Source: Escherichia coli (GTDB lineage Bacteria; Pseudomonadota; Gammaproteobacteria; Enterobacterales; Enterobacteriaceae). Taken from it: DNA of 64,000 nt. Location of the stretch: assembly GCF_022846255.1 (NCBI RefSeq), contig NZ_AP025682.1. One strand, given 5' to 3'. Below, in pieces: positions 6,001 to 9,000 of this stretch. Numbering within the stretch: the first letter of the stretch is position 1; each line of letters starts with the position of its first letter. A program made the position numbers.

Positions 6001-9000
6001 CACTAACAGCAATAGCTGCCAGCTTGCGATCGCCACGATCCTTCGGTATATAGAGATCCCCGACTAAGGTGATCCCGTACCGGTTCGGAAAGGTCACCTT
6101 ACGGTGATCAACTTTCGTGCTCTCAGCAAACGTTTTATCCCATTTCTCGACCTGCGAAACGGGCGCGTTCGGATTGGTTGTATCAGCGTAACTCATATTT
6201 GTGACTCCATTTAATGATACGCATAACAGCATGGCGGGTATCGCAGCTGTCAATTTTTGGGTGAAAGCAGTCATCAAAATTCCCCTCATAAAATGTGCCA
6301 GATACTGGTTTCAGACGGATAACACTGCTGTGCTTTGTTGCAACGTGCACATTATAGTTAGCATTAATAGTGCTAATTAGAGGGTAAAAAATGCTAAGAT
6401 TAATAACATATTGTTCTTAATCGTGATGCAGCAGCAGAGGAAGGATGATGGCGAAACGGGAAAACTATAACGATCTCTATCTGTTTATGAAGGTCGTGCG
6501 AGAAGGGAGTTTTACCGCCGCCGCGCAGAGGCTTGGCCTGGCGCAGTCAGGAATTAGCCGTGCAGTGCGCGAGCTGGAAGAGCGACTGGGCGTGCAGCTT
6601 CTAGTACGCACCACGCGCAAGTTATCGCTCACCCATGCCGGCGAGTTATTCTATCGAAACGTCGAATCTGGATTTGACGCCTTAGATATGGGGCTTGCCA
6701 CGCTGGCCCATTATCGCCATACACCATCGGGTACGGTCCGAATTAATGCGAGCCAGCATGCCATTGATAAAGTGCTTCTGCCGAAGCTGGCGGTGTTTAA
6801 ACAACGATACCCGGATATTCGGCTGGAGCTCATCAGCGAAAGCCGGTTTGTCGATATTATTACTGAGCGCTTCGATGCCGGTATACGTCTGGGCTCGGAA
6901 GTGGATAGCGGTATGGTTGCGGTGCGCATTTCGCCCGATATGGAGATGGCCGTTGTCGGCACACCCGAGCACTTTCGTCGCTACGGATTTCCGCAAACCC
7001 CCACCGATTTAGTGGGTCATCCCTGCATCGCTTACCAGTTCGGCGACGGCAGCCTGTATGCCTGGGAACTCAATCAGGACGGTAAAAAGATCACCCATCA
7101 GCCTCAGGGACAATGGGCCTTTGCTGACAGTTATATGGAAGCCAAAGCCGCGAGGCTAGGTCTGGGACTGGCTTATGTTCCGGAGGAATTGGTGTCTGAT
7201 GATATAGAACAGGGGGCGCTGATCAGAGTTTTGCAATGCTACAGCCAACGCCTGGCAGGTTCATATATCTATTATCCGCACAGAAATGTGTCACCCGCTC
7301 TACGAGCGGTTATCGATACATTGAGAATTTAAGGGATGAAGATGAGATGATTCGCAGGCCTGGGTAATAGTTGGAAAACAACGTCCGTTCCTGGCACAGA
7401 GCAGACCATCGGACTAAACTGAAGGTCCTCTCTGTGCGAGAAACGGAAGTTAGCAATTGTGATACAGACGTGGGGCATTACTCGCTTTACAGTGTGTTAA
7501 TCAATTGGAAACAGGTCAGAATTTATTGGGTGGAATGACACCTTTAAACTTCTTGCGCATCGCAAGGAATATCTCCACCAGACGGTAAGACAGTAGATTG
7601 CGCCACAAGTCCTCAGAATGCCCTTTGCTGGGTTAACCACACGTCGTAATCATCCTTCCAGTGCAGCGGATCAAGATCCGTAATGCTCATAGTCACGCGA
7701 TTTCAAATACAAGCCCAGTGGTGTTATCCGTGAGCTGGACAGTGCTTCCGGCAACATGACTGAGACAGACAAAAAATCAGTTAGTACAGCATTGACTCAG
7801 GTTGAGCAGGAGTTAAAACAAACTGGGCTGGAGCAGTAGAAGCCTGCAGTGAATTCCCTGAATCAGGCGATTAAGTTGGCTTAAGAGTCCGTGTATGCCA
7901 TGTGCCGCGAGATGTCGTGCTATACGTGAAAGTCAGCGATATATATCGTTTTGAAGATGATTTAGGTTACGGGAGTGTCTCTGGGTGATGTATTACTTCA
8001 TCGACATCGGCTACGCACGGGTTGCCGCGATGCAGCGGATGGAAGCTGTCTGGGAAAAGAAAGCTCCGCTTGCTAATATTAGTACATCCGATGAAAAATC
8101 GTGTGTGAAAGTTGCAGATTCGTAATATACTAATGAAGAATGGAGATGTATTTTATATAATAAAAACATCTAAGTAGAGCTTTTTATTTTAAATCCTTCA
8201 TTATTACTGGAGATTTTATGGGTTTTTATAATGACGCACTGAGTAAAATATATAGTGAAGATGATGATTTCCTAATTATAGGATTAACAGGGAGGACGGG
8301 GTCAGGCTGTTCAACAGTTTCTAATATACTGTCATCAGAATCAAGTGAGATAAAGCATTCTCTATTTAACGGTGATTACCCTAAGTCGAATGAAGAAAGA
8401 AAAGAGCGGGTTCTATTTAAATATTTTTCCGTGTCATGGGTTCCATTTATAAAGATACAAGCAAGTTCCATACTGACATTGTGTTTATCAAAGGACTTTG
8501 ATGGTAAGCTGAATAAATTTATTCGGGAAGTGACGGAGTTAGGTAATGACCAAAGAATCCTAGAGTCAACAGTTAATGATCTTGAATCTATACTAAAAGA
8601 AATTAAAGCTAAAGATGAAAGCTCTGATCATGATATAGATGATAAGATAAAATTCATAAATGAATATCTAATAAAAGCGAATACACAAATTAAATCCATA
8701 TTTAAGAACAAGGCTGACTATATAAAACTATATCAAGCTATAGGTAATAATTATAGATCTAGTGGGATGTACCATGACAGTTCATTTAGTGATGATTTCC
8801 ATGGTTTTTTTCTTCCTAAAAAAATAAATGATATAATTCAAAGATTAAGAACCTTAGCAAAAGAAAAGAACACAAAAACTGGAGAAAAGAAACCTATTTA
8901 TATAGTTATTGATGCTATAAGAAATCCGTTCGAAGCAACATACTTCCAAGATAGATACTCATCATTTTATTTAATGGCTGTTTCTACAGAAGAGCATTAC

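Follow-up and report, generated by a model that had tools for sequence, protein, structure and literature searches.

The 528 bp between a LysR-type regulator gene (6445-7332) and a gene for a 592-amino-acid (aa) P-loop/deaminase protein (8218-9996) in Escherichia coli contig NZ_AP025682.1, positions 7333-7860 of the 64,000-nucleotide stretch analysed here (the window), are best read as the place where two cargo cassettes meet in a lambdoid prophage, within its accessory arm. They comprise the end of cassette 1, a 74-bp boundary element and the first 400 bp of cassette 2. The probability of this reading is put at roughly 80%. The first 400 bp of cassette 2 are non-functional debris of two genes, a small gene on the minus strand and the plasmid mobilisation gene mobX on the plus strand. 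The 74-bp inverted-repeat element, which was overlooked in a preliminary description of this DNA, is the only part of the stretch that is likely to be functional. The parts of the junction are as follows.

7333-7378, no strand: 3' flank of the LysR gene and the last unique bases of cassette 1, found with the LysR block at 98-99% identity in other E. coli contexts (an identity that extends to 7406).
7379-7452, no strand: cassette-boundary inverted-repeat element, an imperfect palindrome of 74 bp, placed by folding, by a switch of similarity and by the annotation of record AJ512680.
7516-7721, minus strand: remnant of a gene of an uncharacterised 84-aa family, truncated at its 5' end and carrying two frameshifts, placed by its relatives P0121, P0122 and P0123.
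7723-8176, plus strand: mobX pseudogene (an accessory mobilisation gene of MOBQ plasmids), placed by DNA homology, tblastn and codon alignment.
8089-8217, plus strand: conserved region upstream of the deaminase gene (mobX tail, AT-rich leader and ribosome-binding site), the presumed native promoter region and the only upstream sequence common to plasmid contig L133.
8218-9996, plus strand: anti-phage dCTP deaminase (P-loop kinase-like and dCMP deaminase domains; AvcD-like), the payload of cassette 2, placed by PF00383 and PADLOC dCTPase.

Similarity to other genomes switches at the junction: for the LysR block the match runs out at 7406, and relatives of the deaminase block align to it from 7381 onward. 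Five E. coli genomes match the window from 7381 to about 12000 at 98-99% identity but have different left neighbours there (DUF4365, an integrase pseudogene and a hypothetical gene). Copies of the LysR block (3691-7406) with 97-99% identity occur in P2-like prophages, where they occupy the Z hotspot between the sheath and tail-fibre assembly genes, and in a genomic island adjoining a GTPase gene and Ag43; in these other contexts, the DNA directly after the LysR-side repeat is quite different. Judged from these alignments, the remnants travel with the deaminase cassette and not with LysR. The 26-bp overlap of the two blocks, 7381-7406, was considered as a phage attachment (att) core and rejected, as no second copy is present in the window.

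Could the fragments instead be what is left of a chromosomal neighbour of LysR, an ancestral gene destroyed when the AT-rich deaminase island inserted, as the preliminary description supposed? The fragments are indeed dead genes, and their G+C content (0.45-0.49 across the stretch) is nearer to that of the LysR side than to that of the deaminase gene (0.27-0.36). However, the same fragments accompany the deaminase, without LysR, in the five genomes with different left neighbours, and where LysR occurs elsewhere it is followed by other DNA straight after the repeat. Moreover, one fragment is a plasmid mobilisation gene, and the LysR gene is itself part of a mobile cassette within a prophage. 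The context comparisons refute this history, which can be given next to no credit.

The other observations of the preliminary description fare better. It stated that no open reading frame of 60 aa or more is present in 7333-7860, and the longest is of 55 aa (7371-7538, plus strand). A stretch of 528 bp without a long reading frame is not unusual by chance, and it is because of homology, not because of the absence of reading frames, that the quoted fragments are held to be real gene pieces. Both peptides quoted as coding-like were located, MTMSITDLDPLHWKDDYDVWLTQQRAF on the minus strand at 7613-7696 and MTETDKKSVSTALTQVEQELKQTGLEQ on the plus strand at 7756-7839 (in a frame that begins MTETDKK), and both are homologous to genes. 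The translated search that it suggested yields fragmentary homology, and the view that these are decayed gene remnants is upheld by similarity, interrupted by stops and frameshifts, to plasmid mobX and to the 84-aa family. Only the right limit of the stretch has to be changed: the mobX remnant runs on to 8176, 316 bp past 7860.

The plus-strand remnant is the better defined of the two. In a sensitive DNA search, 7723-8112 is 70-72% identical to plasmid genes annotated "mobilization protein MobX", and the overall DNA identity to mobX of many small plasmids is 70-76% (best blastn match E 8e-84, 75.9% over 454 nucleotides (nt)). Two MobX proteins align by tblastn through stops and one frame change, with residues 44-176 showing 66-78% aa identity to the window (composite E 2e-45, a value obtained against a target of only 1.1 kb). 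A codon alignment to the closest gene, that of Yersinia aleksiciae pB-8086-2 (75% nt identity), places stops at 7837, 7882, 7927, 7963 and 8123, together with two frameshifts, one from the loss of 2 nt after 7975 and one from the gain of 1 nt at 8135. Codons 1-45, about 45 codons at the 5' end, are missing. In the metagenome contig L140, which carries a 93% identical copy of this DNA, the first two stops are still the glutamine codons CAG and CAA. The plus-strand peptide is thus, on the strength of these alignments, a piece of a dead mobX gene. It differs from MobX of the MOBQ (ColE-type) plasmids, which it resembles in protein and DNA sequence, in being a 5'-truncated pseudogene inside a prophage with no mobA or oriT beside it. 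On plasmids, mobX is 585-591 nt long and is separated by about 12 nt from the MobA/MobL relaxase gene that precedes it. In the window, mobA has left no trace at 7200-8300 (best tblastn E 0.4 with two MobA proteins). Intact MobX homologues on many plasmids (H38, H40, H49, H76 and others) carry the pipeline label 'tRNA modification GTPase', a name that seems ill-suited to a small mobilisation protein of coiled-coil/membrane type.

The minus-strand remnant was searched as a conceptual peptide joined from three minus-strand frames. Its match is P0123, a protein of 84 aa found by phmmer at E 1e-16 among 1.84 billion representative proteins; residues 20-83 of P0123 are 45% identical to the repaired frame over 64 aa (pairwise E 1e-21). 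Further relatives are P0121 (79 aa, 87% identical) and P0122 (52 aa, an E. coli gene call). Relatives were found only in the large protein collections; tblastn against plasmids and phages, Pfam and NCBIfam returned nothing for the peptide, and no Pfam or NCBIfam model matched the P0123 family. In L140, the minus-strand frame is continuous; compared with that copy, the window lacks 2 nt near 7615 and has 1 extra nt near 7679. With homology beginning at P0123 residue 20, the remnant lacks about 19 codons at its 5' end. On short metagenome contigs, P0123 is located 10 nt upstream of a GNAT acetyltransferase gene; in L141 (229-937) the acetyltransferase that follows is of 147 aa, a layout that recalls antitoxin-toxin pairs with GNAT toxins. 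In L140 (5560-5870 and 6763-7656), the same debris, consisting of the hp2 half of the boundary element, the small gene and mobX codons 45-100, ends at the equivalent of window position 7887, where it is interrupted by what seems to be an IS6-family element; IS91-family transposase genes are nearby.

Homology to P0123 ends at about 7721, two bases from the start of mobX homology at 7723. This shared edge indicates that two once-divergent genes both lost their 5' ends at one breakpoint. Could the short reading frames be functional micro-proteins? Gene callers do predict products of 79 aa (P0121) and 52 aa (P0122) on nearly identical DNA, but the N-termini of both calls are antisense to mobX-derived DNA, which makes these database entries chimeric artefacts. 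The breaks in the frame of the small gene are not the same in the window, P0122 and P0124, and the only distant relative, P0123, aligns from residue 20 onward. Functional micro-proteins are hardly credible here.

The element itself is built from two related halves. The core repeat is GTCCGCT-N10-AGCGGAC; copies of it or of its inverted hp2 variant are present in the window at 7384-7406, 7425-7447, 3691-3713 and 10602-10624. In the 74-bp element, the core of the first half, hp1, is TCCGTTCCTGGCACAGAGCAGAC at 7384-7406, with 2 substitutions relative to the core; the second half, hp2, is an inverted and diverged copy of hp1 at 7425-7447, and the two together form an imperfect hairpin of about 30 bp. 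The predicted folding energy is -39.3 kcal/mol on the plus strand and -40.8 on the minus strand (z -5.6 and -5.8). The two remaining copies lie at the outer limits of the cassettes.

3691-3713, plus strand: hp2-type repeat GTCTGCTATGAGCGAGGAGTGAT, the left boundary of cassette 1, where the 99%-identical LysR block starts in three unrelated contexts.
10602-10624, plus strand: degenerate hp1 core TCCGTTTCTGGCACATAGCAGTC, the right boundary of cassette 2, found by a motif search allowing up to 3 substitutions; similarity to locus L011 resumes exactly at 10602.

The order in the window is therefore hp2, MFS-hydrolase-LysR, hp1-hp2, debris with deaminase, hp1 and tail-fibre genes. Cassette 1 (3691-7406) consists of an MFS transporter, an alpha/beta hydrolase and LysR; cassette 2, the deaminase block (7453-10601), is adjacent to it and likewise bounded by repeats. 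Locus L011, which has different cargo, has only 7384-7451 and 10602-12172 in common with the window, and among the window, L011 and L001, the cargo differs exactly between the repeats. It is unusual that a metabolic-looking MFS-hydrolase-LysR trio moves like a phage moron.

That the array is prophage cargo is indicated by the limits of the prophage, which extends over 49 kb (3313-52379) between torT and torS and is flanked by a direct repeat.

3302-3312 (torT side) and 52380-52390 (between int and torS): prophage att core TTCACCTAAAG, an 11-bp direct repeat.

By Pfam, torC, torR and torT are at the left end of the window, and on the right a lambda-type integrase gene (51233-52306) is followed by torS. 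The junction rebuilt from the outer flanks is 100% identical over 61 nt to sequence next to torS in other genomes, with a match covering at least 80% of it in 3096 of 5426 complete E. coli genomes. The direct repeat and the rebuilt empty junction together identify 3313-52379 as a prophage. Its assignment as lambdoid is based on the lambda-type integrase and on tail genes of lambdoid type (gpJ, for example) in the corresponding prophage region of SF-468. The LysR gene, the stretch and the deaminase gene all lie in its accessory arm, adjoining minus-strand tail-fibre genes. A tRNA or tmRNA fragment as att site was also considered, but there is none near the stretch; the only tRNA genes in the window, tRNA-Thr (TGT) and tRNA-Asn (GTT), are inside the prophage on the minus strand (36514-36669).

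Where did the deaminase gene come from? RefSeq labels its product 'hypothetical protein', but the deaminase domain is recognised by Pfam PF00383 and by PADLOC dCTPase (E 5e-127); the score with NCBIfam NF041025 (anti-phage dCTP deaminase), 370.7 bits, is below the 400-bit cutoff. The gene is rare, present in 5 of the 5426 E. coli genomes, and its product is 43-54% identical to relatives in named species, including Pseudomonas and two Firmicutes. A scan of species-representative genomes gave relatives of only 43-44% identity and no information on context. However, a 90%-identical deaminase is found on a plasmid contig of 9.2 kb, L133, together with Rep3 and TraM genes. Similarity of L133 to the window starts at 8089, so that the two have about 130 nt upstream of the gene in common, the last 90 nt or so of the mobX remnant and the AT-rich leader. 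This comparison supports a plasmid origin of the deaminase cassette, and it suggests that a promoter of the deaminase gene may lie in 8089-8217.

These findings can be combined into a putative history. On a small mobilisable plasmid, the deaminase gene may once have followed directly after mobX. A single deletion would then have removed both gene starts together with oriT and mobA, and the 3' end of the mobX remnant might have been kept because it carried the deaminase promoter. Several points weigh against this account. The intact plasmid order (small gene, oriT, mobA, mobX, deaminase) was found nowhere and is a reconstruction. The promoter assignment is drawn from conservation with a single relative, L133; 8089-8217 is 81% identical to L133, close to the neutral rate as judged from the four-fold degenerate sites of the gene (77%), and a scan of 8089-8217 for consensus promoters gave no strong site.

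The DNA upstream of the deaminase gene might alternatively act as RNA. In Vibrio cholerae AvcID, an inhibitory RNA of 152-174 nt is encoded directly 5' of the deaminase gene, on the same strand, and the two are transcribed together; the cognate upstream regions of AvcID homologues have no sequence similarity to each other (bioRxiv 10.1101/2021.03.31.437871; PMC10511110). The mobX-derived DNA could in the same way yield an antitoxin RNA like AvcI, which would hold the deaminase in check up to the moment when a phage stops transcription by the host. The remnant sits exactly at the AvcI position, and its last part, within the 130 nt or so before the gene, is retained in the plasmid relative. The two systems are also alike in the two-domain deaminase and in the non-coding stretch directly 5' of it in the same orientation. 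Yet the upstream DNA in the window is a recognisable dead gene whose conserved part diverges at nearly the neutral rate, there is no Rfam match that would point to an RNA partner, the portion 7723-7860 is not shared with L133, and a 71%-identical deaminase has an upstream gap of 60 nt with no similarity before the start codon. An antitoxin RNA is very unlikely.

Beyond the deaminase gene, the DNA from its stop codon to the right boundary repeat (9997-10601) contains frameshifted-looking minus-strand reading frames (10227-10414) and a terminator-like hairpin on the minus strand (10193-10219); the fragments had no Pfam match, and nothing identifiable resembles these 600 bp.

The boundary element is widespread. 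Its two-hairpin form is present in 679 of the 5426 E. coli genomes, where every copy is chromosomal and none is annotated. Among phage records, the element was found in 103 genomes, including P2, Wphi, L-413C and Stx1a/Stx2c phages. The core TCCG.T..TGGCACAGAGC.GAC is carried by more than 120 viral contigs of IMG/VR, in which, as in the window, the element stands at points of change between cargo cassettes; the IMG/VR search demanded the exact core, so the apparent invariance of the core is partly built in. The relaxed boundary motif, with up to 3 substitutions, had no match in 615 kb of shuffled sequence. Three settings can be distinguished. In P2-like phages, the element adjoins the tail-fibre assembly gene G, with variable DNA on its other side. 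In Rac-like lambdoid prophages, it lies between replication/PerC-like genes and the DinI gene, and the conserved backbone breaks off where hp2 ends, to be taken up again from another hp1. In the third setting, it separates two variable cassettes, as in the window, phage 899, and the retron Eco8 and reverse-transcriptase loci. The Rac-like cargo hotspot was also seen in L017 (4940-7361) and about 30 related IMG/VR loci, where it lies between lambda-P-like/PerC-like genes and a DinI-LexA-DUF968 block and has sharp limits, hp1-hp2 at one edge and the hp1 variant TGGCACTCAGCGGAC at the opposite edge. Single-gene cassettes, three to five in a row, all in one orientation and with the hp1/hp2 element between them, form arrays in L042 (2245-5309) and L066 (7966-11607), and also in L050, L108, L070 and L015; their cargo is very diverse and mostly unannotated, with GIY-YIG-like, TIR-like and AAA-type proteins (labels given by eye from translations).

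The element is already known, as the annotated inverted repeats of the P2-like Z region. In three short "proviral Z-region" records, AJ512680, AJ512683 and AJ512685, the matched site is annotated "left inverted repeat", and AJ512680 also annotates a "right inverted repeat" beyond two "putative lysogenic conversion" reading frames. The inner ends of the left and right repeats of AJ512680 are hp1 and hp2. The three records are presumably those of Nilsson, Karlsson and Haggard-Ljungquist (Mol Biol Evol 2004, 21:1). A text search of papers found none containing the core sequence.

What does the element do? At the DNA level, the evidence favours a role as a short shared sequence at which cassettes may recombine. 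The points at which similarity breaks fall at slightly different places inside the repeats, and such break points would fit homologous exchange at least as well as the action of an enzyme at a fixed site. The title of the 2004 study by Nilsson and co-workers is said to propose site-specific recombination. In our reading, the repeats would serve as short shared sequences for exchange of cassettes between phages, most likely by recombination within the repeats. Against this stand the following: the role in recombination is drawn only from the break points of similarity, no recombinase is linked to the element, and covariation gives no clear support for any one fold. The two small hairpins are 90% paired with no pair changed on both sides, and the long hairpin is 72% paired with 7 such double changes, a count reached by 8 of 500 shuffles.

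One candidate enzyme was considered, a tyrosine recombinase of 200 aa (catalytic domain only). Its full-length copies are 95-100% identical, and it recurs in repeat-bounded cassettes beside a hypothetical protein of 367 aa.

Copies of the small tyrosine recombinase: L012, 1857-2459; L144, 8124-8726; L145, 3417-4019; L056; partial copies in L001 and L050.

The recombinase gene of L145 starts 40 bp downstream of an hp2-like repeat. The recombinase is present in 6 loci and absent from most cassettes, and it was treated as cargo, though it might have some link to the repeats.

The palindrome might instead act through RNA: it could terminate transcription, be a target of RNase III or insulate cargo operons from phage operons, and its position at the limits of cassettes would then reflect only that every moron comes with a terminator of its own. 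The hairpin has very high stability whichever strand is folded, the genes on either side of it are convergent or in tandem, and the minus-strand window copy is followed by GTTGTTTTCC. But a terminator scan called no site at 7379-7452, the T-rich tail is not conserved among copies, and in P2 the annotated terminator of the V operon (15639-15666) is a separate site some 280 bp beyond the repeat (15274-15361). The arms, moreover, are conserved as sequence, with little compensatory change. An Rfam scan of the palindrome gave only microRNA-shaped, sub-threshold matches (26-27 bits against cutoffs of 68-90). A function in RNA is accordingly judged unlikely, and exchange within the repeats is the explanation preferred.

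A bolder proposal is that of a dedicated exchange pathway at hp1/hp2, which would move single-gene defence cassettes among P2-like phages, lambdoid phages and islands in the manner of an integron, without a linked integrase. It is conceivable but doubtful. If it were true, the window would represent a natural two-cassette array that captured a plasmid-borne dCTP deaminase and plasmid debris with it, and the pathway would bear on what drives the very fast gene turnover at P2/P4 hotspots. In a study of these hotspots, the mechanism of gene exchange is called unknown and the repeats are not mentioned (PMC9122126). The repeats offer a concrete and testable candidate for exchange at Z-type hotspots.

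The stretch itself, dead DNA and a boundary repeat, is ordinary and of little importance. Annotation should mark two pseudogenes and a repeat at this position, in place of a blank or of chimeric small reading frames such as P0121 and P0122. It nevertheless provides a worked example of a defence gene probably in transit from a small plasmid to a prophage cargo slot, with plasmid debris still attached. The interest lies mainly in the breadth of distribution of the repeat, as the repeat annotated for the P2 Z region serves as a cassette limit in islands and in two lambdoid hotspots too.

How does the element compare with known systems of cassette exchange? It resembles the attC sites of integrons in that arrays of single-gene cassettes with the same orientation are divided by imperfect palindromes of comparable size, and some copies end in AAC...GTT. 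However, attC sites conserve structure, whereas this element conserves primary sequence; most copies do not conform to the R''/R' consensus (RYYYAAC ... GTTRRRY), the window copy ending AAACAAC ... GTTAGCA; and the cargo here has promoters of its own and can face either way. The flanking reading frames included no gene resembling intI. Lambdoid phages also have morons and, between their exchangeable modules, short conserved 'boundary (linker) sequences', described in the literature of the HK97/HK620 era. Like the present element, these involve short conserved joints between modules, cargo that may lie either way round and exchange across unrelated families of phages, but the window element is one specific palindromic family that spans P2-like phages, lambdoid phages and islands, and is not homology of gene ends. 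The closest likeness is to the Z (Z/fun) repeats of P2-like phages: the core is the same, a repeat of hp2 type is on one side of the cargo and one of hp1 type on the other, the cargo changes exactly at the repeats, and variable, horizontally acquired genes lie between the repeats in the window as well. The P2-like copies are located between G and FI, whereas those of the window are in the tail-fibre-proximal accessory arm of a lambdoid prophage; and since the window has two cassettes in tandem, hp1 and hp2 abut there as a single palindrome of 74 bp.

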